Part shown: piece by piece, positions 12,845 to 53,917 of the stretch
Position numbering within the stretch: the stretch's first letter is position 1
Layout: every line of letters starts with the position of its first letter
Assembly: GCA_002430725.1 (NCBI GenBank)
Contig: DJCU01000040.1
Coordinates: forward strand, 15,401 to 79,400
Source of the DNA: Candidatus Gottesmanbacteria bacterium UBA5942
GTDB taxonomy: Bacteria > Patescibacteriota > Microgenomatia > UBA10105 > UBA927
DNA: 64,000 nucleotides
Direction of reading: 5' to 3'
The notes under the pieces: model-generated
The model's database searches: none
What the model was told of the DNA's origin: nothing
Seen by the model: the letters and a program-made list of their open reading frames with translations, nothing else
Position numbers and translations under genes: made by a program

Positions 12845-14112
12845 GCATAGAACGTGGGGAGTGGGAGAGTGATATAGTTTGATATAGTTGATATAGTTTG
12901 ATATACGTCTATAAAACTATAGGACACTATGTGGATAAATATTTTCACGGCCTCAGACAACTGTTTTCACAACCCTCCATTTGAAGCTAAACTAGCTTCA
13001 GGTTGTCTATAAAACTATAGGGTAGAGCACTCCTATCACTCTTCACTCGTACGCTCGCCTCATTCCACCCGCTCCCTTGAGTACACAAAGTGTGCGATAA
13101 AATAGCAGTTTGGATTGTTATGACGGGCTAAATAGCGTTATGTCACTCGGAGCAGAGTGTCGAAACGTAGCCTCAAAAACGCTACTTTAGCGCATTAGAA
13201 CAGTCTAAATAAAACCGAAAAGATATACACGTTTGGCAGACGTGCCTATGCAATGCTAATCATGCGTAATGGTGCGCAGCATCGTGTAGCATTGAGGCTG
13301 ATAATATAGTTTTGGACCGTATTATCGCTCTATTCTGACACCTGAATGTTATTCTGTTGTATTAGAAATTAGCCTCGAAAATGACAATATAGCGCGTATT
13401 AATGAGCTAAATTAGCCCCTACGAAATACACAGTGTCAACGTAGCCTCATAAATCTTTATATAGAGCGTAAAAACGCGCTAAATTGCGACATCTCCAGTG
13501 TATACGTTATCTCCGGAGTAGGGTTCTGTAGCCTCGAAAATGACAATATAGAGCGTATTAATGCGCTAAACGGTATGCTATATAAAAAACCCGAACGACC
13601 TTATTTGACTGTCATATTGTTGTCGATATTGAACACAAAAACAGTACGCACAAAGTAGCCACGAGAGAGTGCAGTATTTTGCATGAGCTTGAGCGACTGA
13701 TGCATATACTCCTCTTTGCAACAATCCTAGCTTTTTTGGCATGACTCCTTTTTAGGCCAAATATGCCTGGGAGCGGGAAAATGGTATAAGTCGCACAATA
13801 ATACTTTTACGACATTATGAAGCGAGGTGTGCCCGAATAGTCACTTTTTGTGCGCCTATCATTATCTGACATTTGTGCATCAATATATCGTAATTTTATG
13901 ATGTGTACTTATATGTTCCTCTCTTACTGTATTGCCACTTAACTCGTCACTGGTTTGTGTTTGTCCGCTTATCAAGAAAACCCTGCTGAGTTTTCAGAGT
14001 TTTCGCGTTCTAGTAAGCTAAATAGTTTTTAGTTCGTTTTGTGAGATGATCACTTGTATGTCTTTTAATAATCAGGGGCCTTGTAGGTCATTACAGAGGC
14101 TTAAAATTGAGG
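12845..14112. repeat. 1.27 kb ORF-free, repeat-rich non-coding region
   Basis: No ORF of 60 aa or more in any of six frames; tandem gatatagtt(t) x4 at 12871-12906; 17-bp direct repeat gtctataaaactatagg at 12907 and 13005; 42-bp direct repeat at 13370-13411 and 13529-13570; tagcctc motif four times; inverted gaggcta. Confidence 0.7.
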
Positions 14113-14811
14113 CTAATTCTCAAGAAAACGATACGTCCCTAAAACGCGTGTTTTTGACGGATGTGCACCCGCATTTGTCTCTACCAACGCCACTGTATCA
14201 ATGACTCCGCTGCCAATGTCCGTATCTTTTAATGTTTGTAGTTTTTTCAGAAATTCTGGAGTCGGTGTATGGGTATATCGACAGATGGTTGTATTGGCAA
14301 ATACCATGGTGTCCGAGAAGTATTTTTTGTCGTCTGGGATACCATGTCGCACAAATTCATGGCGTATGCGATGGATAAATCGATTGTACCGAGGTGTAAT
14401 AAGGACGATGACCGAGACACTTGTTGGCAGCGCTAACACGCCATGCCATACAAACGGAAATGGCCGTTCTGACGGGATAAGTTTGGTAAGCAGACCGCGC
14501 GATGTTTCAATATCTTTTTGGCTATATGTGGGCGGATTATGGATGATTCGGATGCTATGAAATGTCACATGCAGTGATTGTTTTTGATAATAATATTGTG
14601 TTGGATCAAGGCGTTGTAATGGTTCGATTAGCTTGTTCTGAATGGACGCAGCAATTGCTTCCGGTACAAATGCGTTGAGGCTCAGACATAGCTGATTGTC
14701 TGAGGCAAAGTCAGTCTGCATAGGTACGATTGTTGAGACGCGAGAGTCCGCTGCGAGCATGGTTTCCATCTGGCGCATCAGGGCAAGCTGCTTCTTCTGA
14801 AACGGGGTCAT
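14113..14811 (-). CDS. Hypothetical protein, weak resemblance to 2H phosphoesterase (LigT-like) with degenerate second motif
   Basis: One H-x-T-x motif (SLHVTFHS) about 88 aa before an N-T-T-I at the expected second HxTx position. Confidence 0.35.
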   Translation of the reverse strand: MTPFQKKQLALMRQMETMLAADSRVSTIVPMQTDFASDNQLCLSLNAFVPEAIAASIQNKLIEPLQRLDPTQYYYQKQSLHVTFHSIRIIHNPPTYSQKDIETSRGLLTKLIPSERPFPFVWHGVLALPTSVSVIVLITPRYNRFIHRIRHEFVRHGIPDDKKYFSDTMVFANTTICRYTHTPTPEFLKKLQTLKDTDIGSGVIDTVALVETNAGAHPSKTRVLGTYRFLEN

Positions 14812-14860
14812 AGAGATATTCTAACATATTGACAACTGGCGTCATGTCGTACAATCATGG

Positions 14861-15844
14861 TTGTATAGACGTCTCAATGAACATATGGATTTAGAACAAC
14901 TTATCAAAGATTTTTTAGAATATCTGGAAATTGAGCGAAATGTTTCGCAATTGACGATACGGAATTATCGGCACTATTTGTCGCGATTTGTGCACTTTTT
15001 GACGAGCCCGGCCGACCCTGCCTCCCCTCCCCCATCCGTGAAAACTGCCCCCGTGAAAATTACGGATATTACCGCAGAAAGTATTCGGCATTATCGGTTG
15101 TATCTCGCGCGGTTTGCCGATGAAAAAGGTATGAGCCTCAAGCGAGTTACCCAAAACTATCACCTGATCGCACTCCGGAGTTTCTTAAAATACGCAGCAA
15201 AGCGAGACATCCCTACTATTTCGCCCGACAAAATTGATTTGCCCAAGGCGGAAAGCAGGTCTATCAAGTTTTTGGAGCATACCGATGTGGAGCGACTCTT
15301 AAACATGCCCGACATGAACACAAAGGAAGGAACGAGAGATAAAGCGATACTCGAGGTGTTATTTTCTACCGGTCTTCGGGTATCGGAACTTGTCAGTCTC
15401 AATCGTGATCAGATAAACCTTGATAGACGTGAGTTTAGTGTGGTTGGTAAAGGAAGAAGAACGCGTATTGTGTTTTTGTCCGAGCGGGCTGCAGATTGGC
15501 TGCGAAGGTATCTTGCCACTCGCGAAGACGATATGCGACCAGTATTTATCCGATATAGTGGCAGAACTCCTGATGAGCACGATACGACAGGCGCATCAAT
15601 CAGGTTGACCGCGCGCTCGGTGCAGCGGGGCGTTGAAAAGTATGTCAAAAAAGCAAAGTTGATGGTAAAGATTACGCCGCACGGGTTGCGGCACAGTTTT
15701 GCGACAGACCTGTTGGGAAATGGGGCGGATTTACGGGCTATCCAAGAGTTATTGGGGCACAAAAATGTCTCTACGACTCAAATTTATACCCATGTCACGA
15801 ACCCACAGCTGAAGCAAATACACGATAAGTTTCATAGCAAATAA
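14861..15844 (+). CDS. Tyrosine site-specific recombinase, XerC/XerD family
   Basis: Catalytic box HGLRHSFATDLL...LGHKNVSTTQIYTHV; N-terminal core-binding domain with an atypical Pro-rich insert SPADPASPPPSVKTAPV. Confidence 0.9.
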   Translation: MYRRLNEHMDLEQLIKDFLEYLEIERNVSQLTIRNYRHYLSRFVHFLTSPADPASPPPSVKTAPVKITDITAESIRHYRLYLARFADEKGMSLKRVTQNYHLIALRSFLKYAAKRDIPTISPDKIDLPKAESRSIKFLEHTDVERLLNMPDMNTKEGTRDKAILEVLFSTGLRVSELVSLNRDQINLDRREFSVVGKGRRTRIVFLSERAADWLRRYLATREDDMRPVFIRYSGRTPDEHDTTGASIRLTARSVQRGVEKYVKKAKLMVKITPHGLRHSFATDLLGNGADLRAIQELLGHKNVSTTQIYTHVTNPQLKQIHDKFHSK

Positions 15845-15850
15845 TTAGGC

Positions 15851-16813
15851 ATGACCCCTACCTCATACATACAACAACAGCTTGATGCATTCGCAGCCCC
15901 ACTATCCGTTCCGTTGATTGGTTCAGATATAGAAACAAATATATACACATTGTTGCTTTCCAAAAAGTTTCGAAAGTATTCGGTGAGTCCTGAATATTTA
16001 TCTCATATTCGTAATGCTATTCACTTGAATGTCTCTCGTAATGAACCCATCAAACTTACGCTTGTGTTTGGTGGATATAAATTATGGCGATTAGAAGAGT
16101 TTCCAGAGCCGGATTGGGCTGAAGTTTTTAGTCTTATGTATTATGCCCATTGGTTGCGTCCCATCGCTGCGATATACAAGCCGGGGGTTGTCTTGGACTT
16201 TTATTCTGATGATGTGATTTTGGAGTACATGGATAATATTCCCAAAAAAGAGACTGATCAGTATATTGCAGGTTTTCGAAACTTGCTCGAGTTTATGAAG
16301 TCATATATTCCGAAGAATGTATTATTTACTCTCAATCGTGTTGGTGATCAGTATGGAAGTTACAATGATTTTATTATTGAGCTGGAGCAATCAATTGAAG
16401 ATGTTAAAAAAACATTAGGTGGTTTACCCACGCTCACACCGGAACAGGCAGGGCTCGTAGAACTCAATGTCCGAGTGAAACCTGGACAAACAGATGATCC
16501 ACTCTGGAAAGAAAAAGTTTTTTTGATCCACGAAGGATACGCGCGGGTTTCGAAGCGGCGGCCGTATTACCGAGCGCCAGATAAAATATTTGTGATCACT
16601 CGACCGCTCAAAGATTCTATCGCAGTCGGCACTACGAAAACGTCTGTTGTGAAATTTTGGATTGGTGCAGGAGTGCTGCAAAAGCAGGGTGATAGTTTTG
16701 TGCCATATATCTACTCTCCGAAACAACTATCAGAGGGAAAATTTTTGACTGAAAACATACATATAGCCGGTTTGACCGGTAAAAATTATACATCGGTGAA
16801 AATACGCCAGTAG
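15851..16813 (+). CDS. Hypothetical protein (320 aa) tightly coupled between the recombinase and ATP-grasp genes
   Basis: 6-nt gap after the recombinase and 10 nt before the ATP-grasp gene; no recognisable family. Confidence 0.5.
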   Translation: MTPTSYIQQQLDAFAAPLSVPLIGSDIETNIYTLLLSKKFRKYSVSPEYLSHIRNAIHLNVSRNEPIKLTLVFGGYKLWRLEEFPEPDWAEVFSLMYYAHWLRPIAAIYKPGVVLDFYSDDVILEYMDNIPKKETDQYIAGFRNLLEFMKSYIPKNVLFTLNRVGDQYGSYNDFIIELEQSIEDVKKTLGGLPTLTPEQAGLVELNVRVKPGQTDDPLWKEKVFLIHEGYARVSKRRPYYRAPDKIFVITRPLKDSIAVGTTKTSVVKFWIGAGVLQKQGDSFVPYIYSPKQLSEGKFLTENIHIAGLTGKNYTSVKIRQ

Positions 16814-16823
16814 GAGGTGTTAT

Positions 16824-17831
16824 ATGCGCATATCAGTCCTATACAACAAACCAGCTGCACGATTTACGACAAAGACCACGCATCTGGTCGCTGAAGAGGA
16901 TACTGAGGAGTCAGCAGTGGAGGTAGCGGAAGCACTGCAACAAAAAGGAGCAGTCACTACCCTTGCTCCTATTACCGAGCGAGATTTCAAAAAAGTGATT
17001 ATGGCTTTGCCAAATGATTTAGTGTTCAATCTGATCGAATGGACAGGTGTAGACACGCCATACGCAGTGAAAGCATATGAGCACATTCATGCGCGAAACC
17101 TCGTATATACTGGCGCGACTTTGGATACCTACTTACTCTCCTGTGATAAGTCGGTCATGAAAAATCGCTTGGATGAGCATGGACTTCCGACTGCCAAGTG
17201 GCAGTTGTTTCATACCGGAAACGAATCGATACGACAGGATTTTCGGTATCCACTCATCGTCAAAGTAAGCTCGGAACATTCCAGTGTCGGGTTGTCGAAG
17301 GAGGCTATCGTAAAGGATGAGAAAAATTTGATAACTATCGTAAAAAAAAGACTCGCAGAATATAAGCAGCCGGTATATGCAGAAGAGTTCTTGACGGGGC
17401 GTGAGTTTCAGGTGACGCTTATAGAGAAAGCGAGTGGACTTACGGTGTTACCTATATCAGAAGTGTTGTATACCAAAACAACCGATGTACCCTTTTTGAC
17501 CTATGAAAGTCGATGGGATGCCACACACTCGGACTACGATAATTCAGGGGTGCTACTTGCGAAACTCACTCCAGCTATGCAGCACAAGATTGAAGATATG
17601 AGTAAGCGAGCATTCACGACATTTGGGTATCGTGATTATGCGAGGTTTGATGTGCGGTGTCAGGGTGATGAGCCGATGTTTTTGGAGATAAATTCAAATC
17701 CTGGATTAAGCGATGACGAAGAATACGGTATGACCGTTTCCTATAAAGCAGCAGGGATGACATTTGCCGATTTTGTATGGGAGATCGTGCAGTCCACTTT
17801 ACGGAGACACAAAAAGTCTTTTAAGGAATAA
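16824..17831 (+). CDS. ATP-grasp ligase, D-alanine--D-alanine ligase-like
   Basis: PLIVKVSSEHSSVGLSKEA and YRDYARFDVRCQGDEPMFLEINSNPGLS parallel the Ddl ATP-grasp central and C-terminal motifs. Confidence 0.75.
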   Translation: MRISVLYNKPAARFTTKTTHLVAEEDTEESAVEVAEALQQKGAVTTLAPITERDFKKVIMALPNDLVFNLIEWTGVDTPYAVKAYEHIHARNLVYTGATLDTYLLSCDKSVMKNRLDEHGLPTAKWQLFHTGNESIRQDFRYPLIVKVSSEHSSVGLSKEAIVKDEKNLITIVKKRLAEYKQPVYAEEFLTGREFQVTLIEKASGLTVLPISEVLYTKTTDVPFLTYESRWDATHSDYDNSGVLLAKLTPAMQHKIEDMSKRAFTTFGYRDYARFDVRCQGDEPMFLEINSNPGLSDDEEYGMTVSYKAAGMTFADFVWEIVQSTLRRHKKSFKE

Positions 17832-18429
17832 ATACCCGGGCGGTTTCGGTACGGAAATACGGCAAGCTTTCCGGGTCGCGGGCAACAACCATCATAAGTT
17901 GCGGCTGCCATTTTCTGATAAGCCGAAATTTTTTGCTATTTTTTTTCACTCGTTTTCTTTTGTAATCAAAATCCCACCAGCGTGATCGGAAATCCGCCCA
18001 GTCATAGGACTTTCGTTTTCCCGTTGCGCTGTCGAGAAGTACTACTCGAGATTTACTTGCAAGATACGAAGCGACCATAGCCCAGTGACCTGATTCTTCT
18101 TGCGGTCGATATTTATCGTCCAGATCATAAAGGTAAGAAACAATAACTGCGCGCTGCTCCTTTGGGCGATATTTGAGTGCACTCTGCAGATGGTGTAAAG
18201 TTGCGTATTCCATGACCAAGACAGATAGCCCGAGTTTATTGGCGGCTTCGATCATGTGTTTTGTGCTTGTACCGTTTCTACCGGTCTTGCATAATGAAAT
18301 TAACCGTTTCATTGACACTCTTTTCCCTACCACTTCGAGCGCGTGCTTAAGAGATGTCGGTCCACAGGTAATATCATCCGGCTGCTGAATTGGTTTTATA
18401 TGTGTTCTTCCCATAGTAAAATTCCACAA
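17821..18429 (-). CDS. Stand-alone peptidase C39-like (papain-fold) domain protein
   Basis: QQPDDITCGPTSLKHAL matches the C39 Q..D.CG.A.L catalytic Cys motif; downstream GHWAMVASY is a candidate catalytic His; convergent with and overlapping the ATP-grasp 3' end by 11 nt. Confidence 0.55.
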   Translation of the reverse strand: MWNFTMGRTHIKPIQQPDDITCGPTSLKHALEVVGKRVSMKRLISLCKTGRNGTSTKHMIEAANKLGLSVLVMEYATLHHLQSALKYRPKEQRAVIVSYLYDLDDKYRPQEESGHWAMVASYLASKSRVVLLDSATGKRKSYDWADFRSRWWDFDYKRKRVKKNSKKFRLIRKWQPQLMMVVARDPESLPYFRTETARVFIP

Positions 18430-18550: not shown

Positions 18551-19285
18551 TTACTGGATTTCGTAGCTTAGCATGACATTTACAGTGATCTCAGAAGACC
18601 CTGGTTCTACCTCGGTAGGCACGCCACCTCCAGAAACAGATAGCTTTTCTGCGGCATCATACATGAGCGGTCTTGGGCCAGCTCCACCACCTTCGCTGTA
18701 GTTTATGACCCTTCCCAGAGTAAAGCCAGCGGCTTTGGCTGCAGCTTCTGCTTTGGATTTTGCATCAGCGACCGCGGCTTCACGTGCCTGATTTTCTGCT
18801 TTTGTTTTGTCATCGACATCAAACGATATGCCACCTACTTGGTTTGCTCCCTGTGCTGTTGCGGCATCGATAACCGCATTGGCGTTATCTATTTTTCTTA
18901 CTTTGATAGTAAGATTTGAATTCGCTTGGTAACCAGTGATGCGTTGGGTATCTGACGAGTAGTCATATACCGGAGAAATGTTGTAGTAGCTAGTTTTTAT
19001 ATCTTTTTCGTCTACCCCCAGTTTTTTTATCGCGTCACTCATTGCATTTATTTTGGTATTTAATTCCTGTTGTACGCGAGTGACGGTAGACCCTTGGGAA
19101 GTTACCCCGACATGCACAACTGCGATATCAGGTACCATAGTCACTTTTCCTTCACCGGAAACGGTAAAGGTATCTGTTTTTTGGGTAACGACATTATATA
19201 ACGAAAATGGGATAGGCCCGGCTAGTTTGGTGTAGGCAAAAAGTAGTATAAAAAATAGAACAATAGCACCAGCGAGATTTTTCAT
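18551..19285 (-). CDS. SIMPL domain (DUF541) secreted/periplasmic protein
   Basis: Signal/anchor N-terminus; SIMPL-type repeats (VTVVGEGK..., ANSNLTIKVRKIDNANAVIDAA) and VEPGSSEITVNV C-terminus. Confidence 0.7.
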   Translation of the reverse strand: MKNLAGAIVLFFILLFAYTKLAGPIPFSLYNVVTQKTDTFTVSGEGKVTMVPDIAVVHVGVTSQGSTVTRVQQELNTKINAMSDAIKKLGVDEKDIKTSYYNISPVYDYSSDTQRITGYQANSNLTIKVRKIDNANAVIDAATAQGANQVGGISFDVDDKTKAENQAREAAVADAKSKAEAAAKAAGFTLGRVINYSEGGGAGPRPLMYDAAEKLSVSGGGVPTEVEPGSSEITVNVMLSYEIQ

Positions 19286-19303: not shown

Positions 19304-20149
19304 TTATTGCATCATACAAGCTTTTATAAGATTTTGCATAAGACAGGCGACATTTACCGGCCCAACTCCTCCGGGGGTGGGTGTGTACCAACCCGCAATG
19401 TCAGCGACATCATTTTCTTCATAGTCTCCTCGTAATTTTCCTTTAGCATCACGCCAAATGCCAACGCTGATAAGGATAGCACCGGGTTTTACCGAGTCCC
19501 GAGTGACTACCCGTTCGCGTCCGACACACGAAATGATAATGTCTGCGTTTTTTATATGACTCTGGGGGTCGGGTGTCTGGGAATGAATTTGTGTGACCCT
19601 CGTATGCTTTTTTTGTAAATAGTGAAAAATAGGAGCTCCTGCAGTTGCTCCCCTGCCAATGACCACGATATGTTTTTCTTTGAGCCAATGGCTAAATTCT
19701 TTTTGTTGCGCAGGTGACTCGCGGTATATGGCTTGTAGCATTTCATCGACCGCCATAGCCACCGGTACATCAAACGGTGAGCCGGATAAAAATCCATCGA
19801 CATCTTTTGTTGGTAAGACATCGTCCAACGTGTCGTTCACTACGCCCACTTCTTTGGGGATAGGTCGTTGGACAATAAGTCCATGCACCAACGTGTCTTT
19901 ATTGTATTTAGTAATAAGGTTATACAGTCCTCCTGCGGTAAGTGCCGGGGGCTGGTGGTCAAAGATGACGCGAGCTCCGATTGCTTCTGCTGCTTTTTGT
20001 TTTTGTTTAATGTACGCAAGAGATGCCGGGTCGTCACCTATCAGAATGACCGCGAGCGTTGGGATAACGCCTTTTTTTTGTAAGCCACCCACCTGTATTT
20101 TTAACGAATCGAGTATCGATTGCGCGAGTAATGTACCATCTAGTTTCAT
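19304..20149 (-). CDS. folD: Bifunctional methylenetetrahydrofolate dehydrogenase/cyclohydrolase
   Basis: VVIGRGATAGAPI NAD(P)-binding motif; PGGVGPVNVACLMQN C-terminus. Confidence 0.9.
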   Translation of the reverse strand: MKLDGTLLAQSILDSLKIQVGGLQKKGVIPTLAVILIGDDPASLAYIKQKQKAAEAIGARVIFDHQPPALTAGGLYNLITKYNKDTLVHGLIVQRPIPKEVGVVNDTLDDVLPTKDVDGFLSGSPFDVPVAMAVDEMLQAIYRESPAQQKEFSHWLKEKHIVVIGRGATAGAPIFHYLQKKHTRVTQIHSQTPDPQSHIKNADIIISCVGRERVVTRDSVKPGAILISVGIWRDAKGKLRGDYEENDVADIAGWYTPTPGGVGPVNVACLMQNLIKACMMQ

Positions 20150-20233
20150 AGGTATGAAATTAGTATAGCAAATTCACATTTGACAATGGGGGCGACTTCG
20201 CCCCATTATACATACAGAGGAGCAATTATTTAT

Positions 20234-20974
20234 ATGGAACATAAACCATTAAGTGTCGCAATTATTGTAAGTAGTGTACTGTTAGTGACGTTGGTTGCAG
20301 TGGGTGGTCTTTTCCTTCCCTCGTGGGGCAGAATTCACGTTGCTCCAACCCAAACCGTTACGGTCGTGGGCGAAGCGAAATCGCAAGAAAAAAGCCAAAT
20401 TGCTGTTTTTTCAGCAGGGGTCAATGCGTTTAATGATGACAAAACTGTCGCAGTGAACGATGTAAACCGCAAGGTGGAAGCGATCATAGCTGCGGTGAAA
20501 GTGTTTGGTGTCACAGAAGATGATATCAAGACGCAAAGTTTGAATATTTATCAAAACCAGGAACAATACTATGAAGATGGTCGGCAAAAGTATCGCCCAG
20601 GACAGTGGAATGTCAGTAATACCGTTGAAATAACACTACGAAATGTAGATCAGGCATCTGCACTTGCCGGAGTACTTACAAATACCGGGGCAAACAACGT
20701 GTACGGCCCGAATTTCACTTTTGATGATACGAGCGAACAAGCGACCGCGCTTCTTGACGCAGCGTTTAGCAATGCAAAAGTGAAAGCTGAAAAAGTCGCG
20801 CAGTCGACAGGCCAGAAATTAGGGAAAGTAGTCAGTGTTACGGAGGCTGGAGCATCACAGCAGGCAGTTCCCTACTATGCGCGGATGGAGGGTGGTGGCG
20901 GTGGTGGCGGTGCGGTTGAACCAGGAAGCGGTACGGTGAGTAAAACCGTTACGGTGACATTTGAGCTTCGCTAA
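20234..20974 (+). CDS. SIMPL domain (DUF541) protein, paralog of 18551-19285
   Basis: Same architecture and similar C-terminus AVEPGSGTVSKTVTVTFEL; start placed at the ATG after SD agaggag. Confidence 0.7.
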   Translation: MEHKPLSVAIIVSSVLLVTLVAVGGLFLPSWGRIHVAPTQTVTVVGEAKSQEKSQIAVFSAGVNAFNDDKTVAVNDVNRKVEAIIAAVKVFGVTEDDIKTQSLNIYQNQEQYYEDGRQKYRPGQWNVSNTVEITLRNVDQASALAGVLTNTGANNVYGPNFTFDDTSEQATALLDAAFSNAKVKAEKVAQSTGQKLGKVVSVTEAGASQQAVPYYARMEGGGGGGGAVEPGSGTVSKTVTVTFELR

Positions 20975-21267: not shown

Positions 21268-21519
21268 TTATAGCTCAATAATTTCTTGAATATTTGAAAG
21301 TGTTTTTCGTAGTGCGCCAAGCAGTTCACTGCGTTCATTAAATGGCCCAAATGAGCCAGTGTATGGCGGTATTACCCCTCGTCTTGGCAATTCTGTCGTG
21401 CAAAGTGCTTGCCAGCCATTTCTTGTGTGTGTTACTTCGATGCGGACGGGATATTTTTCTCCCCCATTGGTAAATATGCCTGATAGATAGGTAGATCTTT
21501 TTTCTATTGCGCGAGACAT
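21268..21519 (-). CDS. UPF0150/HicB-like small protein with no adjacent HicA
   Basis: YPVRIEVTHTRNGWQALCTTELP...ERSELLGALRKTL resembles the HicB N-terminal domain (E. coli HicB YPVTLTPAPEGGYMVSFVDIPEA...GETVAEAMEAAKDAL) with an insertion. Confidence 0.35.
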   Translation of the reverse strand: MSRAIEKRSTYLSGIFTNGGEKYPVRIEVTHTRNGWQALCTTELPRRGVIPPYTGSFGPFNERSELLGALRKTLSNIQEIIEL

Positions 21520-21884
21520 GATTGGTTAATAATTGCAGCAGGAAGTTGTCCTAAAACTTCTTGTGGTGTGACATTGACGTATTTATCATAGAGCTGTTTC
21601 GGGAGTTGGTATTCACTGCACACACCAGTACCTGTTCCCGAGGTTACGCAAAAGCCTAAACATCGCTGGCTCGTGCCGTTACATGCAACACCTGCATCAG
21701 CAAGCTTTTGCACACATTCGTATTTTGTGCCGCTACACCAGCTAAGAAATTCTTTCCCATCTTTTTCACATTGAGTTTTTGCGACCTGTCTATTAAATGA
21801 GGTAGCAACAAGCGTATAGGTCATTTGCGCATAGCTCGACATAAGCGCAAGCGCAATCAATACAGGCTGGAGAAATGATTCCAT
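21504..21884 (-). CDS. Secreted cysteine-rich small protein
   Basis: Signal peptide MESFLQPVLIALALMSSYAQ; 8 Cys in about 100 residues; no homolog recognised. Confidence 0.45.
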   Translation of the reverse strand: MESFLQPVLIALALMSSYAQMTYTLVATSFNRQVAKTQCEKDGKEFLSWCSGTKYECVQKLADAGVACNGTSQRCLGFCVTSGTGTGVCSEYQLPKQLYDKYVNVTPQEVLGQLPAAIINQSCLAQ

Positions 21885-47561: not shown

Positions 47562-48785
47562 TCATGACGTTATTTTACCAGCTTTTCTGCCGACTTTTAA
47601 TATATCGCCTTTTTTGGGTGATATTGCCTGGTGATAATCGGTTATAAGTTCGTTGTTAAATGCAACCGCCTTTTGTTCGATGAGGCGTTTCGCTTCAGAT
47701 TTGCTTGAAGCAAAACCTGAGGCAAGCACGACATCAGAAAGCGTAGGATTATCGGAAAATGCGCTCAGTGACAACGGTACGAGCTCCGCGTTACCCAAGT
47801 CGCCCTTTTGAAATCGAGTTTCAAATTGTTTCTGTGCGTTTTCGGCATCTTTGTCTGAGTTAAATTGTCGTGTGAGTTCGTACGCAAGTTGCTTTTTGAA
47901 CTTCATAGGGTTTTCCCCTTCCGTCATTTGTTCTTGCATGGCGGTAATGTCGTTGTCAGATATATCAGTGAGTAATGTAAAACATGGAATGATAGCGTCA
48001 TCACCTAATGACATTATTTTGCCATAAAAATCGTTTGGTGCATCGGTAAGCCCAATCGCATTGCCTTCTGTTTTCCCTATTTTCACCCCTTTGGCGTCTG
48101 CAAGAAGTGGTACGGTCATCACGAATTTTTCCCTGCCCTGCATAGCCGATACCAATTGGCGACCTGCAAGCATGTTAAACGATTGATCCGTTCCGCCAAG
48201 TTCAAGATCGACACTCATCGCGACCGAATCATATCCTTGGAGTAGCGGGTACAAAAATTCACGAAGATTTATCGACTCTCCCCGTTTCATGCGCTCCTGG
48301 TACATGTCTCGTTCAATAAGTTGCTGCACCGAAAAATTTTGTGCGATTTCCAAAATATCTACAAGCGTAAGCGAGTTTAGCCAATCACCGTTGTAGAGAA
48401 TTTCTACGGGATTATCGCCATCAAACCGAATTATTTTACTTGCCTGTTTTACGTAGTCCTGTGCATTTGATCGTAGTTCCTCACGGGACATAAATTTTCC
48501 ACGAGCTTTCATCTTGCCCGAAGGGTCTCCTGCCTGGCCAGTCCCATCACCGATTAAAAATATGACATGGTGTCCGAGATCCTGAAATTCTTTCAGCTTT
48601 CTAATCGCTACCGCATGCCCGATATGCAGCTGCGTGCCAGTCGGATCAAAACCCTGGTACAGCCGAAGTTTTTTGCCGCTACGAAGCACTTTTTCAAAGG
48701 CTTCACGATTTGGGTAAATGGTGTCGACACCCCGAGTTAATAAATGATCAATTGCGTCCATAATTTCTCCTTTACTATAGCACAC
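47562..48785 (-). CDS. tyrS: Tyrosine--tRNA ligase with C-terminal S4 domain
   Basis: HIGHAVAIRKL (HIGH), KIGKTEGNAIGL (KMSKS-region equivalent), S4 C-terminus. Confidence 0.95.
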   Translation of the reverse strand: MCYSKGEIMDAIDHLLTRGVDTIYPNREAFEKVLRSGKKLRLYQGFDPTGTQLHIGHAVAIRKLKEFQDLGHHVIFLIGDGTGQAGDPSGKMKARGKFMSREELRSNAQDYVKQASKIIRFDGDNPVEILYNGDWLNSLTLVDILEIAQNFSVQQLIERDMYQERMKRGESINLREFLYPLLQGYDSVAMSVDLELGGTDQSFNMLAGRQLVSAMQGREKFVMTVPLLADAKGVKIGKTEGNAIGLTDAPNDFYGKIMSLGDDAIIPCFTLLTDISDNDITAMQEQMTEGENPMKFKKQLAYELTRQFNSDKDAENAQKQFETRFQKGDLGNAELVPLSLSAFSDNPTLSDVVLASGFASSKSEAKRLIEQKAVAFNNELITDYHQAISPKKGDILKVGRKAGKITS

Positions 48786-48794
48786 CGTTAGTCA

Positions 48795-49901
48795 TTATTC
48801 ATGCCACACGTGTCGTGCCACGCGTGCGACAAGCTGTAGTTTCCGTTTCTGATCACGTACCGTCATATTATTGCCGCGGGCGACAGACGCAAATCCGCAT
48901 TGCGTGCTTATCGCGAGCCGTTCTATCGGAACAAAACGTGCGGCTTCCCGTATACGCGCCACCAGATCTTTTTGCCGTTCGAGTTTGGGTGACTTGGTGG
49001 TTACAAGACCCAATACTACTATTTTATCTTTCGGCACATGACGCAACGGGCTGAAATCGCCCGCGCGCTCACTGTCAAATTCCAACAGCAGCCGATCTAC
49101 GCGCGCACGTTTAAAAACGATATCTGCGATGCGCTCGTATCCTCCTCGAGCCATAAAACGGTTTTTGTCGTTACCGCGGCATATGTGGAGTGACGTTGTG
49201 CCGGAAAATCCCTCTAAGATGTCATTTATCATCGCCACACCTTCGGCAATAAGCGTTTCAGGGTTGAACCCTTTGCCCGCAAACCATTCCCGCTGAACCG
49301 GATCAAGCAGCATGCCAAATTCGGGAGCATCAACCTGTATGTGGGCAACCCCCTGTCGATCCAGTTCCCGCACGCTCTCCTTGAGGTGGTGTGTGACATC
49401 TTTGAGAAACCCAAGTGGTGACGGGTATACCCGGTTAGATATGCCAGGGACAAAGTAGTAACTCATCATAGTCGGGCTTGGAATAGTAATTTTTGTCGGC
49501 ATATCGGTGATTGCCCGCAGGAATGAGAATTCGTCAACCGAGATATCATGAATTTTTTTAAGTTTCCCGACGATGCCTACCGTTACCGGATCGACAATTT
49601 TCTTTCCGTTCATATCAAACCAGATGACGGTGTTTCCCGGGACATTCCATTTAAATCCTTCCATCGCTTTTACAAAATTATGGCAAAATACCGGGCGGCG
49701 CATTTCCCCGTCGGTAACGATATCGACACCGGTCTCTTCCTGTATGGTGACTGCTTCTCTGACCGCCTTGTCTTCTTCCCGAGTGAGATCAGCCGGTGTT
49801 GCTTTTCCCTGCCTCACATTTTCCTGCATCGCAAGCAGTGATGATGGTCGCAGCATACTGCCCACAACATCAGCTCGTATGGGCGCTCGTTTTGTTTTCA
49901 T
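48795..49901 (-). CDS. Core (single-domain) cobalamin-independent methionine synthase, MetE C-terminal-like
   Basis: DVVGSMLRP start typical of the MetE catalytic barrel; Zn ligands retained (H-I-C in GTTSLHICRGN; Cys in ISTQCGFAS); no N-terminal folate-binding barrel. Confidence 0.8.
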   Translation of the reverse strand: MKTKRAPIRADVVGSMLRPSSLLAMQENVRQGKATPADLTREEDKAVREAVTIQEETGVDIVTDGEMRRPVFCHNFVKAMEGFKWNVPGNTVIWFDMNGKKIVDPVTVGIVGKLKKIHDISVDEFSFLRAITDMPTKITIPSPTMMSYYFVPGISNRVYPSPLGFLKDVTHHLKESVRELDRQGVAHIQVDAPEFGMLLDPVQREWFAGKGFNPETLIAEGVAMINDILEGFSGTTSLHICRGNDKNRFMARGGYERIADIVFKRARVDRLLLEFDSERAGDFSPLRHVPKDKIVVLGLVTTKSPKLERQKDLVARIREAARFVPIERLAISTQCGFASVARGNNMTVRDQKRKLQLVARVARHVWHE

Positions 49902-50761
49902 GTTTCCTCCTTCCGGGCAAATGCCCTAAGTGAAATGGGACTAAAATCTAGCACGTGTCCTTTGACAGGATCTCGGTTAATCCGCCGTTTGGACCAAGGC
50001 GAAAGGTTTCTGGGCGGTTCCGCGTCCGTCACCGACCATACCGATACTCCAGGTAGGTGACGCAGCACATCGGAGAATTCCTTCTTTGAAAAAGCAGCAG
50101 TAAATGTCGGCAGAAGAAGCGGCACGATAGACGGTTTCGTAAACCGGAGCCTTTCCTCAAGTGCTGTTAAAAATTCGGGAGACGTATTCCGCTGGTAGTC
50201 TGCAACCAGTAGGCTTCCGCCTGGTTTCGTCAGCCTGAACATTTCAGTCATTGCTTCACGCAGGCGCTCCAGGCTCGACATCTGATGGGTAGAGTTATGG
50301 CTAATCACCAGGTCAAACTGGTTGTCCGGTAATGCAATACGTTCTACCGGTGACTTTACAAATCCCATGCGTCCGAGTATCGACCGGGCGTGAGCTTTTT
50401 GTCGCGCGTGTTGAAGCATCGTGTCATCGCCATCATGTTCCATGACAAATTTTGCGCCCATTTTGGATAGTTCGCGTCCAAGCCTACCTGGGCCCGACAT
50501 GACATCCAACACGTGCATAGAGCGAAGCTTCCGTTTGCCGAACCGGTTCGCTACCTCGCGCGCGAGTAGCCAATCATCGACCGATGCGGGGTAATCACAC
50601 CCCTGAATGTACGTAAGCGCTTCGTCACGCGTGAACATTTCCGCACGTTCGGGTACCCGTGTCCGGAAATCGAGCGCACGTAATCCGAACGGGTCGACAT
50701 TTTTTTGCCTGAGCATGTCAGATCTCATGATTTCTCTCATATATCCCTCACTTTCATACAT
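49898..50761 (-). CDS. Class I SAM-dependent methyltransferase
   Basis: Motif I VLDVMSGPGRLG, motif post-II PGGSLLVADY; stop overlaps (ATGA) the start of the downstream MetE-like gene. Confidence 0.7.
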   Translation of the reverse strand: MYESEGYMREIMRSDMLRQKNVDPFGLRALDFRTRVPERAEMFTRDEALTYIQGCDYPASVDDWLLAREVANRFGKRKLRSMHVLDVMSGPGRLGRELSKMGAKFVMEHDGDDTMLQHARQKAHARSILGRMGFVKSPVERIALPDNQFDLVISHNSTHQMSSLERLREAMTEMFRLTKPGGSLLVADYQRNTSPEFLTALEERLRFTKPSIVPLLLPTFTAAFSKKEFSDVLRHLPGVSVWSVTDAEPPRNLSPWSKRRINRDPVKGHVLDFSPISLRAFARKEET

Positions 50762-50824: not shown

Positions 50825-50909
50825 GTGCTGAGGGGAGGATTCGAACCTCCGCAGACCTGAAGATCAGCTGTTTTACAGACAGCCGCAGTTGTCCCCTTTG
50901 CTACCTCAG
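50825..50909 (-). tRNA. tRNA-Tyr (anticodon GTA), class II, no encoded CCA
   Basis: Minus-strand sequence GCTGAGG...: anticodon stem GCTGT/ACAGC, loop CTGTAAA giving GTA; long variable arm; T-loop GGTTCGAATCC; discriminator A. Confidence 0.85.
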
Positions 50910-50939
50910 CAATATGTATGTATCAATATGTTGTCGCCA

Positions 50940-51285
50940 CAAAAAACCCCGCCTCCGTCCCCGATAAAAAATCGGGAACAAGGGCGGGGGTTTATCCCAC
51001 GCGGTACCACCTTGCTTCGCTAAAGTAAGTTTTTTCCACAAAAAAACCGACGAGAGGTCGGTTCTACCTTAGCCTCATTTGTGAACTCCGCTTATGGCGA
51101 CATTCACATTCTGCTTTTACGGGCTTACCCGGATTGGTTTACTCCTTGTTCAACCTTTCAGCTCAAGTGAGTATTTCGCAGATAATCTATCGGGAGATCT
51201 TGCACCAACCGTCTCCTCTCTCTTGTCTCAGATTGCCTACTACTTCATCACTTTCAATGCTTTTCCTATTCAATTGTTGATTGAA
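50940..51285 (-). promoter_or_regulatory. Putative T-box riboswitch leader (tRNA-sensing antitermination)
   Basis: Minus strand: promoter TTGACA-17-TACAGT; T-box core AAGGUGGUACCGCG (forward 51000-51013) giving antiterminator AAGG/CCUU + bulge UGGUACC + GCG/CGC; overlapping intrinsic terminator CCCCCGCC...GGCGGGG + U7 (forward 50942-50998). Confidence 0.6.
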
Positions 51286-51344
51286 ACTGTATCACAATTT
51301 GTCATTTTTGTCAATCGCAGTTACAATGGATTTCGTGATACAAA

Positions 51345-53917
51345 TGTCCGATTTATTCAGTGAGCGGCAACGGAGGAAGCTATTTGGCTCAAATGTTTCC
51401 CGCATGAAACTCTGGAGCGTTCTCGCGTTCGGAGGGTTCATCGGTTTTGTCGTTCTTATATTATTTGTTGGTATTCTTTTTGCGTGGTATGCCAAGGATT
51501 TACCTCGACCGGATAAAGTGCAACGACAGGAAGGACTTTCTACCGTTGTGCTCGATCGAAATGGAGAAAAGCTCTACGATATATTTGAAGAAGCCAATAG
51601 AATTCCTGCAAAATGGGATGAGATCCCCCAGTATCTTAAAGACGCTACAGTCGCTATAGAAGATAAGGATTTTTATAAGCACCAGGGGTTATCCACGACC
51701 GGTATTATGCGCGGACTGCTGGCGTGTGTATTCATGCGCAGATGTCAGGGAGGTTCTACACTCACGCAACAATTAGTAAAAAATGTATTGCTTTCGCAGG
51801 AGCGAACATTGCCTCGAAAAATGAAAGAAGCAGTGCTTGCGATACAGATAGAGCGTAAATACAGCAAAAATGACATTCTTCTCATGTATCTTAATGAAGC
51901 TCCGTATGGTGGCACTGCAGTTGGGGTAAAAACCGCAGCAGAGCATTACTTTGACAAAGATGTGAAAGATCTTACCCTTGTACAATCTGTTGTGCTCGCG
52001 GGACTTCCCCAGTCACCGAGCTATTATTCGCCATTTACAGGAGATGAAACTGCATATCGTGGACGGGCACAGGAAGTGCTCCGAAGAATGAGGGAGGATG
52101 GCTATATTACTCCCGCACAAGAAGGTGAAGCGAAAAAGCAGTTAGAATCTGTTGCATTTGCCTCTGGAGATGTCGGACTTCGAGCGCCACATTTTGTCGC
52201 TTATATAAAAGAGTTATTGATCGATAGATTTGGCGAAAAAACAGTGAATGCTGGTGGATTGACGGTCACGACAACGCTCGATTGGAAGCTACAGGAAGCA
52301 GCGCAGCTTGCGGTCAAAGAAGAAGTTGAGAAAGCCAAAAAGCTAAAAGTCAGTAATGGGGCTGCCATCGTGATGGATCCGCGTACTGGTGAAATTCTTT
52401 CTATGGTGGGAAGTAAAGACTATGCCGCTACCGACAGTTCTGGACTTAAATTTAACGTGGTTACTCAGGGACTTCGTCAACCAGGTTCGACACTCAAGCC
52501 TATGATTTATGCTGCCGCACTAACCAAAGGATACACTGCAAGCACCATGCTTATGGATGTGGAAACCAAATATCCTTCTGGTGATGCGACAAAGCCTGAG
52601 TACAATCCCAAAAACTACGACAATAAATACAGAGGCCCTATGCAACTTCGGTACGGTTTGGCAAATTCTATCAATACGACCGCGGTAAAAGTCGCGGCTC
52701 TCGTGGGGGTACGAGATGTGTTGAAATTAGGCTATGCCATGGGATTGCAGACATGGGAACCTACTGATGCCAATATGAAACGGGTGGGATTGTCGTTGCC
52801 GCTCGGAGGTGCTGAAGTAAAAATGATCGATATGGCTACCGCATTTTCTGTATTTGCGGCAGAAGGAATGAGAACTGAACCTGTTGCTATTCTCAAGGTA
52901 ACCGATACCAGTGGCAAGACATTGTTTGAGCACAAACCTGTTTCTCCCCGAAACGAATTGGAGCCTGATGTGGCATTTATTATTTCTTCTATACTTTCTG
53001 ACAATGACGCACGGAAAGAAGTTTTTGGCACACGATCGCACTTGGTAATTTCAGGGAAAACCGTTGCCGCTAAAACCGGTACCACCGATGATAAGCGCGA
53101 CAACTGGACTGCAGGTTATACCAAAAGTCGTGTCGTGGTCGCATGGGTTGGGAACAATGACAATTCACCGATGAGTCCTACGCTTGCCTCTGGTGTTACG
53201 GGAGCTGCTCCTATTTGGAATCGCATTATGCGCGAGGCGATTAAAGATATTCCCGATGAGCCATTTACCCGACCAGAGGGGGTTATAGAAATGGATATTG
53301 ATGCGTTTGGAGGCGGCCTTCCGTTTGAAAATCAACCAACGCGCAAAGAGTTTTTTATCAAAGGCACAGAGCCCACCGGGCCCGCAGCAATTTACCAGAA
53401 GTTGAAGATTTCTCGGAAAGACAGTAACAAGTTGGCAAACAGTGTCGAAATAGCGACCGGAGACTATGACGAGAAATTGTTTATTGTCATTCGTGAAGAT
53501 GATCCAGTTTCCGGTGACGGGAAAAATCGATGGCAAGAAGGTATCAATGGGTGGATTGCCGGACAAGATAGTAAATACAAAGCGCCAACCGAAACGTATA
53601 ACGGTGGTGATTCAAATCAAGTCGTTATTCAGATTAAAAAACCCAATGATAATCAGCGAATCGATAATAACGATGTTCAGGTAGAAGCAGAGGCGATATC
53701 TACCGCGGATATAGAACGGATCGAAATATATGTCGATGGTACAAAAGTGAAAGAAAAATCCAACGAAAAAACAATTTCTGAAACCGTCAACATTGCCAAT
53801 GGTTCACACACGATAAAAGTAAAAGCGATTGATAAACGAGGAACGTCTTCCGAACGGGAAATTCACGTAGGCATTAATCAGGATTATGCTTCCCCCACTC
53901 CGACACCCACACCATAA
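51345..53917 (+). CDS. Class A penicillin-binding protein (PBP1A family; GT51 transglycosylase + transpeptidase) with C-terminal Ig-like domain
   Basis: GT51 motifs (ATVAIEDKDFYKHQG, GGSTLTQQL), transpeptidase STLKP...SINT...KTGT; short cytoplasmic tail plus TM when started at 51345 (an alternative start is 51404). Confidence 0.9.

Follow-up and report, generated by a model that had tools for sequence, protein, structure and literature searches.

Xer recombinase, divergent Ddl-family ATP-grasp ligase and C39-like peptidase genes in a conserved block of Gottesmanbacteria-type Microgenomates

Gene content of the locus

Four genes were the subject of this analysis, all located in a 64,000-nucleotide stretch of DNA (the window). 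The original prediction had placed them at the positions below (the C39-like gene from the TTG at 18429), and each was found there. A promoter-like site lies immediately ahead of the first.

14829..14858, plus strand: promoter-like site (TTGACA, 18 nt, AATCAT; 10 of 12 matches in a consensus scan), directly 5' of the Xer ORF
14861..15844, plus strand: Xer-type tyrosine recombinase, 327 aa as the longest ORF (Pfam Phage_integrase)
15851..16813, plus strand: 320-aa protein with a predicted PvcA/IsnA (isonitrile synthase) fold
16824..17831, plus strand: Ddl-family ATP-grasp ligase, 335 aa (Dala_Dala_lig_C)
17821..18414, minus strand: stand-alone C39-like cysteine peptidase, 197 aa from the ATG (202 aa from a TTG at 18429)

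The spacing of the genes was also as predicted: 6 nt separate the recombinase gene from that of the 320-aa protein, 10 nt separate the latter from the ATP-grasp gene, and the 3' ends of the ATP-grasp and C39 genes overlap convergently by 11 nt. We infer that the 320-aa gene is probably co-transcribed with the genes on either side of it. The promoter-like site is a possible, weakly indicated promoter for a transcription unit comprising these three genes; sites of this kind were not enriched in the consensus scan relative to shuffled sequence.

The first protein contains the Phage_integrase domain (PF00589, E = 1.3e-43) and SAM-like N-terminal domains (PF02899, E = 2.1e-13), and the motifs LRVSEL, HGLRHSFAT and IYTHV can be read in its translation. 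It scored 223.7 bits against the NCBIfam model XerA_Arch, passing the cut-off of 220, and 252 and 246 bits against XerC and XerD, under their respective cut-offs of 335 and 330. A catalytic domain and a SAM-like N-terminal domain at a Xer-level score identify it as a Xer site-specific recombinase. Because the nearest relative was called at 319 aa, translation may start downstream of the TTG at 14861, e.g. at the ATG at codon 9. No dif-like site was recognized near the gene.

The C39-like protein matched Peptidase_C39 (PF03412; E = 6.9e-9, 36.1 bits, cut-off 22) and PF13529 (28.2 bits, cut-off 24), with a weak match to the Pfam family Phytochelatin. The catalytic motif IQQPDDITCGPTSL is present in the sequence, and Q11, C17, H110 and D128 (numbered from the ATG) are invariant in 25 homologs; the protein as a whole is strongly conserved, with a mean column identity of 72%. 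When its structural model was compared with known structures using Foldseek, the peptidase domains of ComA and PCAT1 were recovered (E = 4e-7 to about 1e-6), as were the phytochelatin-synthase-like Alr0975 (E = 1.7e-4) and the pseudomurein endoisopeptidase PeiR (E = 3e-5). The protein thus has a C39 peptidase fold in which the Gln/Cys/His/Asp set is complete; an N-terminal hydrophobic segment is absent. Its start is most likely the ATG at 18414, because all homologs begin with MGR(S/T)H. The assignments made originally for this protein (a papain-fold, C39-like peptidase with an intact catalytic set), for the recombinase and for the Ddl-like ligase were therefore correct.

Conserved gene order and the adjacent non-coding region

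Gene order was compared across 80 metagenome loci from relatives among the Gottesmanbacteria-type Microgenomates, 55 of which were scored for the recombinase and 72 for the peptidase. In 51 of the 55 loci the gene immediately upstream of ATP-grasp is Xer, and the two overlap by 4 or 1 nt in 25. The C39 gene converges on the ATP-grasp gene in every one of the 72 loci, with overlapping 3' ends in 51; the pair is persistently linked. Unrelated genes separate the two by 2–4 kb in three loci. The order YebC, DUF5656, ORF-free gap, Xer, ATP-grasp, C39, SIMPL, FolD, GyrA is retained down to approximately 43% identity of the ATP-grasp protein, and the closest genome, UBA6580, has the same gene order over more than 16 kb. 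Relatives whose ATP-grasp proteins are 79, 60, 51 and 50% identical all have Xer, ATP-grasp, the convergent C39 gene and then FolD (with the SIMPL gene interposed in two of the four), framed by TGT or YebC on one end and by GyrA on the other; the 320-aa gene is absent from all four loci. The order is the same around the C39 genes of relatives whose C39 proteins are 78, 68 and 64% identical. We envisage an ancestral unit in which a Xer gene would have been followed immediately by a divergent Ddl-family ATP-grasp gene, their stop and start codons usually overlapping, and in which a stand-alone gene for a cytoplasmic C39-like peptidase would have converged on the ATP-grasp gene with overlapping 3' ends.

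The surroundings in the window are of a housekeeping character (DnaB, Lgt, TGT, GyrA/B, type IV pilus genes, RecG, TyrRS, a class A PBP, PheRS and ThrRS). A shift in composition had been suggested as something to look for; GC content is flat across the region, tetranucleotide z-scores of windows over the four genes lie between -0.7 and 0.15, and codon usage stays within range. The nearest tRNA genes are 1.5 kb and 50.8 kb away.

Little space separates the genes elsewhere in the block; the adjacent ORF-free region (1.27 kb) holds tandem copies of a conserved hairpin element of about 119 nt. This element had no match in Rfam and is probably a new small RNA. The original prediction had noted that no precursor peptide gene was visible unless one lay in this gap. 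None was found there: not one of the 20 small ORFs at 12845–14112 is kept intact in relatives. What the region offers is a candidate small RNA that is conserved, structured and tandemly repeated.

These observations bear on the earlier proposal that the recombinase marks a mobile or accessory island carrying a RiPP- or butirosin-like modification system, with its precursor encoded in the gap. In its favor, a tyrosine recombinase is adjacent, the Xer/ATP-grasp junction takes different inserts in different lineages, and the 320-aa gene has the lowest GC content (0.406) of 30 genes checked; moreover, a paper on closthioamide assembly mentions both kinds of enzyme, ATP-grasp and papain-like (PMC7183216). 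The synteny data, however, contradict the proposal: the block occupies a fixed position in more than 70 loci with no variable placement, and its composition is average, so that a mobile genomic island was rejected. A RiPP or graspetide cluster was likewise rejected, as no precursor peptide gene was found beside the ATP-grasp gene. The ATP-grasp protein is nearest to Ddl and not to RiPP ligases. Among the neighbors, no carrier-protein domain was listed in the Pfam families of the window and the relatives' loci, and no ABC exporter was found in the 12–17 kb loci around the ATP-grasp/C39 pair (the window and eight annotated relatives). PADLOC returned no defense-system match. We regard an island of this kind, whether microviridin- or butirosin-like, as extremely improbable.

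The four genes are real. Rather than a mobile island for peptide modification, they make up a stable part of the core chromosome in one group of tiny uncultured bacteria; a false lead is thereby removed. The explanation that best accommodates the data, to which we assign a probability of about 0.7, is a conserved core-chromosome stretch of Gottesmanbacteria-type Microgenomates (CPR) that is neither mobile nor RiPP-like, into which the 320-aa gene entered as a separate, lineage-specific insertion. Of the original interpretation, then, the family calls and the linkage of the ligase and peptidase genes stood; the island, the modification system and the treatment of the first three genes as a unit did not.

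A PvcA-fold protein at the recombinase–ligase junction

The 320-aa protein had been considered unrecognizable, and curated sequence models indeed fail to name it: there was no NCBIfam match, and the only Pfam match was to PF05141 below threshold (E = 0.0019, 18.2 bits vs. 26.4). Distant members of its family also fall under the PF05141 gathering score. Its predicted structure, by comparison, matches PvcA/PIsnA over the full length, and a profile alignment reveals motifs in common with PIsnA (K77, D88-x-A90-E91, P111-G112 and S119-D120). On the strength of the modeled fold, the protein is best described as a distant relative of the isonitrile synthases that is present at this site in some lineages only. 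IsnA/PvcA enzymes are known to use Tyr or Trp together with ribulose-5-phosphate to form an isonitrile (PMC7949033); the 320-aa protein shares their motifs only in part.

The family is CPR-wide, and its genes normally stand alone. In 78 of 79 loci from other species, the gene is apart from Xer, ATP-grasp and C39, and it is missing from most Xer/ATP-grasp junctions; its insertion there is a feature of the window's lineage and a few others. No neighbor recurs in the 79 loci, the largest neighbor cluster comprising six. It follows that there is no recurrent partner of the Fe(II)/2-oxoglutarate oxygenase type (IsnB/PvcB) in those loci, where Pfam was applied to part of the neighbors, and none is encoded in the window. 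At the junction, the gene is patchily distributed within one half of the ATP-grasp tree, and other inserts occupy the same site in other lineages. It is nonetheless kept there across lineages that share only about 60% identity in the ATP-grasp protein, and retention over such divergence could mean that it is useful at this position. The opposite expectation, namely that the 320-aa protein would prove to be a cell-wall enzyme of the Fem/Mur type beside an unlinked C39 gene, did not materialize either; the result was a third outcome. A CPR-wide PvcA-fold family beyond the reach of curated models points either to isonitrile-type chemistry in organisms of minimal metabolism or to a new reaction on an old fold.

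Ligase and peptidase function, and comparison with known systems

The ATP-grasp protein matched Dala_Dala_lig_C (PF07478, E = 4.9e-26), with no match to the Ddl N-terminal domain (PF01820) at E ≤ 0.1. Its scores against the NCBIfam Ddl models PRK01372 and TIGR01205 were 118.0 and 117.3 bits, below the cut-offs of 243 and 245.65. All of its top PDB matches are Ddl enzymes, 5d8d being the best, and hhalign aligned it with E. coli DdlB at a probability of 99.6 over 274 columns. In that alignment, K147, S153/S154, R274, D276, E288, N290 and G294 correspond to K144, S150/S151, R255, D257, E270, N272 and G276 of DdlB, and K147, S154, R274, D276, E288, N290 and G294 are invariant in the family; the catalytic residues of Ddl are thus present. 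In DdlB, E15, H63, Y216, S281 and L282 bind D-Ala, with H63, Y216 and S281/L282 belonging to the D-Ala1/D-Ala2 sites. This set is not preserved: H63 is replaced by E72 (at least 90% conserved), K215-Y216 by R230-W231 (W231 is invariant), and the S281-L282 segment by DDxEYGM with a two-residue insertion. The alignment is ambiguous at the equivalent of E15.

Because the residues that handle ATP, Mg and the acyl phosphate are retained, the ligase would be expected to activate a carboxylate by forming its acyl phosphate, and then to join it to an amine. Because residues that position the two D-alanines in Ddl are replaced, its substrates are probably something other than D-Ala plus D-Ala. With its complete catalytic set, the peptidase would be expected to act in the cytoplasm, cleaving or transferring a peptide bond; its substrate may be what the ligase makes or a related small peptide.

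What might such a ligase do? A housekeeping function in the cell wall would make it a D-Ala-D-Ala (or D-Ala-D-X) ligase, sharing an operon with Xer on account of their common role in cell division, and would make the C39 gene an unrelated neighbor. The protein may in fact be the cell's only, very divergent, Ddl. Consistent with this, every top PDB and NCBIfam match is a Ddl; the catalytic residues are all conserved; the genome makes peptidoglycan, as judged from the class A PBP at 51281–53917; and the gene is single-copy in most loci, holds a fixed core position and is preceded by a strong Shine-Dalgarno sequence (TAGGAGGTGTTATATG). The low Ddl score, the missing N-terminal domain and the replaced D-Ala-binding residues speak against it, however, as does the occurrence of two such ligases in tandem in two loci. 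Further, no mur or fts genes lie near the ATP-grasp gene, the window as a whole is devoid of mur genes, and PGAP named several homologs “hypothetical protein”. We consider this function possible, if doubtful.

A second proposal is that the Ddl-like ligase builds a small non-ribosomal peptide or amide that the C39 protein trims, transfers or polymerizes, with the PvcA-like enzyme supplying a modified amino acid in some lineages. By analogy, the pair could be likened to glutathione synthetase acting with phytochelatin-synthase-like enzymes, or to a ligase with an opposing hydrolase. The convergent arrangement survives even in loci rearranged upstream (L114, L137 and L157), the tandem second ligase paralog occurs in two of these (L137 and L157), and the conservation of the peptidase, its matches to Alr0975, PeiR and Phytochelatin and the retention of the 320-aa gene at the junction are all in keeping with it. 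Yet C39, SIMPL and FolD are syntenic everywhere, i.e. the pair has never relocated, and since the linkage lies in a wholly syntenic region, adjacency alone is no proof of joint function. In addition, convergence means that the two genes are transcribed separately, they can be parted (by the 2–4 kb noted above), and the 320-aa family is unlinked to either gene in other CPR lineages. Cooperation of this sort seems to us unlikely. More speculative still, and in our estimation decidedly improbable, is a fuller version: a clade-specific cytoplasmic pathway in which ligase and peptidase would make a non-canonical small peptide (e.g. a thiol peptide, or a peptidoglycan stem with an altered terminus), expressed alongside chromosome-dimer resolution, with the PvcA-fold enzyme adding an amino acid modified in the isonitrile or N-formyl manner in some lineages and with possible regulation by the upstream tandem hairpin RNAs. 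On the preferred reading of the block as conserved core chromosome, a divergent Ddl-type ligase with altered D-Ala-binding positions, wired to Xer, bears on how CPR bacteria build or vary their cell walls.

Each protein can be set beside a characterized counterpart. The ligase shares with DdlB (PDB 2dln/1iov) a three-domain ATP-grasp architecture and the residues for ATP, Mg and acyl phosphate; it differs in reaching only about half of the NCBIfam Ddl cut-off, in having LYNKPxxRF in place of the GGxSxE loop, and in being partnered with Xer instead of mur/fts genes. The recombinase resembles the chromosome-dimer resolvases XerC, XerD and XerA in domain architecture, catalytic motifs, the XerA_Arch score and a fixed chromosomal location. 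In contrast to these enzymes, it is translationally coupled to an ATP-grasp ligase, and it remains under both the XerC and XerD equivalog cut-offs.

The peptidase has the papain-like fold, catalytic set and Pfam C39 score of the ComA and PCAT1 domains (PDB 3k8u, 4ry2). Unlike them, it stands alone at 197 aa with a basic C-terminal extension and no ABC-transporter fusion, and its gene occupies a core-genome position without a transporter or leader-peptide gene nearby. The 320-aa protein carries the K, D-x-A-E, P-G and S-D motifs of PvcA, IsnA and PIsnA (PDB 3e59, 9dh4) in its N-terminal half; it is only about 15–17% identical to these enzymes, and its family is limited to CPR, where it is widespread as a single gene.

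Pathways of the butirosin and closthioamide type belong to accessory biosynthetic clusters and depend on a carrier protein, acyl or peptidyl. BtrJ/BtrH and the closthioamide system resemble the present pair in that the gene for an amide-forming ATP-grasp enzyme lies close to one for a papain-fold enzyme, and BtrH_N has been described as C39-related (PMC10318531). They differ from the block described here, which is core-genomic and has no carrier-protein domain listed among its neighbors.

The four genes and their conserved setting

How much of the original prediction holds for this locus? Its observation of four genes was correct: all four open reading frames (4/4) lie where they were claimed to be, with gaps of 6 and 10 nt between the plus-strand genes and a convergent overlap of 11 nt at the end of the third. 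Its family assignments and its linkage of the ATP-grasp and C39-like genes also stood; mobility, the trio as a unit and the analogy to RiPP systems did not.

Genes of the cluster (coordinates, strand, product)
14861-15844, plus strand: Xer-type tyrosine recombinase, 327 aa
15851-16813, plus strand: 320-aa protein
16824-17831, plus strand: Ddl-like ATP-grasp protein, 335 aa
17821-18429, minus strand: C39-like peptidase, 202 aa

Pfam and NCBIfam models upheld the family calls for three of the four ORFs. The Xer gene matched PF00589 (1.3e-43) and passed the XerA_Arch cut-off (223.7 bits vs. 220), scoring under the cut-offs of both XerC and XerD. The ATP-grasp gene, which has a strong ribosome-binding site (TAGGAGGTGTTATATG), matched PF07478 (4.9e-26) and reached 118 bits in the Ddl family against a cut-off of 243. 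The C39-like gene matched PF03412 with 36.1 bits (cut-off 22); because MGR(S/T)H opens all of its homologues, its start is most likely the ATG at 18414.

Gene order was compared in the neighborhoods of ATP-grasp relatives (79, 60, 51 and 50% identity) and C39 relatives (78, 68 and 64%), and metagenome contigs were scanned for 80 further loci (ATP-grasp identity 40–90%), near-duplicates being removed before counting. The common order is YebC, DUF5656, the ORF-free gap, a variable gene, Xer, ATP-grasp, convergent C39, SIMPL and/or FolD, and GyrA. A same-strand Xer gene lies upstream of the ATP-grasp gene in 51 of the 55 loci with enough sequence; in 25 loci it runs 4 or 1 nt into the ATP-grasp start, and in 12 the two are at most 60 nt apart. 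A convergent C39 gene follows the ATP-grasp gene in 72/72 loci, with overlapping 3' ends in 51 and a separation of 2–4 kb in three.

The junction between Xer and ATP-grasp genes looks like a recurrent insertion point. The 320-aa gene occupies it only in the window's lineage and a few scattered branches of one half of the ATP-grasp tree. Among relatives' loci from metagenome contigs, five (L094, L103, L131, L132 and L138) carry unrecognized opposite-strand ORFs of 190–225 aa at this site, and L152 carries a sugar nucleotidyltransferase. Two others (L137:5254-7297 and L157:5056-7094) hold two Ddl-like ATP-grasp paralogues in tandem, each scoring far under the Ddl cut-off, with the C39 gene converging from the downstream side; there, a polyprenyl synthetase gene replaces Xer as the upstream neighbor.

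Several nearby genes deserve mention. Between the ORF-free region and Xer, 14113-14811 (minus strand) encodes a 232-aa protein that lacks a Pfam or NCBIfam match and that some members of the clade retain; in other lineages, an AP-endonuclease-like gene or a second Xer gene occupies this position. The folD gene (19304-20149) sits between two SIMPL/DUF541 genes, 18551-19285 (minus) and 20180-20974 (plus), a layout kept in several relatives. Adjoining gyrA, 21504-21884 (minus) encodes a 126-aa Cys-rich protein whose N terminus contains a hydrophobic segment; it matches no family, and the ORF is called in relatives too.

The cluster had been read as a mobile or accessory island, for which no support emerged. 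Its setting is one of housekeeping genes (DnaB, Lgt, TGT, GyrA/B, type IV pilus genes, RecG, TyrRS with a T-box, a class A PBP, PheRS and ThrRS), and PADLOC returned zero matches to defense systems. GC is flat across the window, tetranucleotide distance is average for windows over the four genes (z −0.7 to 0.15), and their codon usage is within range; a compositional island was rejected on these grounds. Among 30 genes checked, GC is lowest in the 320-aa gene (0.406), and the only tetranucleotide outliers are windows containing the ORF-free gap (z 2.5–3.1).

The T-box leader (50977-51266, minus strand) closely precedes a tRNA-Tyr gene (50825-50910); the stretch farther downstream, 47562-50761 (minus), holds a methyltransferase gene, a MetE-like gene and TyrRS. 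A tRNA gene immediately 3' of a T-box is an unusual arrangement.

The ORF-free gap and a candidate small-RNA array

A RiPP-like system would need a precursor peptide, for which the ORF-free gap (12845-14112) had been left open as a location. None of the small ORFs in it is intact in relatives: their matches span several frames and contain stop codons, which points to conservation at the level of DNA rather than coding, and a precursor peptide in the gap was rejected. This DNA is detectably homologous clade-wide, even where ATP-grasp identity is only 43–50%, and it matches no Rfam family, even at E ≤ 1.

From 13104 on, the gap contains tandem copies of a conserved element of ~119 nt. Its 5' arm, UUUGGAUUGUUAUUACGCUCUAAAU, pairs with a 3' arm in an interrupted stem of 25 pairs; between the arms are ~53 variable nt and a conserved unpaired motif, UAGCCUCAAAA. 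A covariance model made from the element copies was used for searches.

Copies of the hairpin element in the gap (coordinates, strand, covariance-model score)
13104-13223, plus strand: copy 1, 96 bits (overlapping minus-strand match, 27)
13306-13425, plus strand: copy 2, 78 bits (overlapping minus-strand match, 29)
13455-13584, plus strand: copy 3, 48 bits (overlapping minus-strand match, 46)

The model found no further matches in the remainder of the 64 kb, and a search of 955 kb of other CPR loci came back empty. Most of 58 sources (the window and 57 clade loci) have one to three copies, and all element matches listed lie upstream of Xer in one shared orientation.

Pairing and covariation were assessed in 48 copies. 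Pairing cells amounted to 73.5%, vs. 33–43% with the partner columns slid; the covariation score was 0.19, vs. 0.06–0.09 when slid, and 9 of 500 shuffles reached 0.19. Compensatory changes occur in the stem (e.g., UA/UG/CG at one pair and UA/GC at another). The hairpins could alternatively be inverted repeats at the DNA level; G-U pairs number 141 vs. 78 A-C mismatches in the copies, counts that are phylogenetically non-independent, and this excess favors an RNA read from the plus strand. We regard the hairpins as a candidate new small-RNA array, one of three features of the locus that remain of interest.

In the first ~250 nt of the gap (12856-13100), short motifs are invariant in 23 relatives (GTGATATAGTTTGATA, TGTGGATAA..TTTCACG and TTTCACA), and TTGAGTACA..GTGTGCG is nearly invariant at the gap start; TGTGGATAA, kept in relatives, is the sole perfect DnaA box of the 64-kb window. 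No consensus RNA structure emerged for this stretch, which could serve regulation or DnaA binding, or act as the promoter of the hairpin RNAs.

Other candidates were rejected. A single large structured RNA in the first 385 nt of the gap yielded almost nothing (−4.2 kcal/mol in RNAalifold), and sliding MFE z-scores of the gap were mostly unremarkable, the exception being 13100-13259 (plus strand, z = −3.2). A replication origin was dismissed given the single perfect DnaA box, the constant sign of the GC skew and the unsuited gene orientation, as was a dif site beside Xer, dif-like matches being no better than chance.

The 320-aa protein family

As originally claimed, the 320-aa protein is not recognized by curated models; its sole match, to PF05141 (DIT1_PvcA), is sub-threshold (E = 0.0019). 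Its family is well conserved: 471 clusters at the 90% identity level match the protein (identity 49–84% among the 120 matches listed), and 521 representatives at the 50% level match its family profile in a search of 1.84 billion proteins. They come from Saccharibacteria, Paceibacterota, Nomurabacteria, Microgenomates and other CPR groups.

An AlphaFold model, with 36 sequences as input, was confident (pLDDT 93.8). In Foldseek, it matched isonitrile synthases over its full length (PIsnA, 9dhm, E = 2.8e-12), and the family profile matched PIsnA at the sequence level (E = 3.9e-4); our literature search found no paper describing the PIsnA structure. Residues K77, D88-x-A90-E91, P111-G112 and S119-D120 align with identical residues of PIsnA and are invariant or nearly so within the family. 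Weak matches to PF05141, which might have bridged the two families, were found in only two of ten distant members. The full-length fold match and the profile match to PIsnA mark the 320-aa protein as a distant enzyme of the PvcA/IsnA fold rather than a cell-wall enzyme of the Fem/Mur type. In known enzymes with this fold, the amino nitrogen of Tyr or Trp becomes linked to a ribulose-5-phosphate carbon (PMC7949033); this chemistry is a candidate reaction for the present family.

The proposed trio did not hold as a unit. In a set of 80 genome loci drawn from different species, the 320-aa gene has Xer, ATP-grasp and C39 genes as neighbors only in Gottesmanbacteria UBA6580, the closest genome. Clustering of four genes per side revealed no recurrent partner of the family, the largest cluster covering 6 of 79 loci. 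The family, which has the PvcA fold, spans CPR and escapes the curated models, remains of interest.

The ligase and the facing peptidase

The best PDB matches of the ATP-grasp protein are all Ddl, and its family profile aligned with E. coli DdlB at a probability of 99.6; residue roles are those of the DdlB literature. The ATP, Mg and acyl-phosphate residues of DdlB are kept. H63, K215-Y216 and the S281/L282 segment of DdlB are replaced by E72, R230-W231 and DDxEYGM, all invariant or nearly invariant across the family. From these residues, we infer that the protein is probably an active amide-forming ligase with substrates other than D-Ala and D-Ala.

The C39 family is highly conserved (mean column identity 72%), with Q11, C17, H110 and D128 invariant. 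The protein carries no signal sequence, and neither a transporter nor a leader-peptide gene was found nearby. It is plausible that ligase and peptidase are functionally paired, but the argument for this is their adjacency, and the region around them is syntenic throughout. This divergent ligase of the Ddl type, coupled to Xer and opposite a stand-alone C39-like enzyme, remains of interest. The model of the latter (pLDDT 72.5) is nearest to the peptidase domains of ComA and PCAT1; behind these, it also resembles the pseudomurein endoisopeptidase PeiR and the phytochelatin-synthase-like Alr0975.
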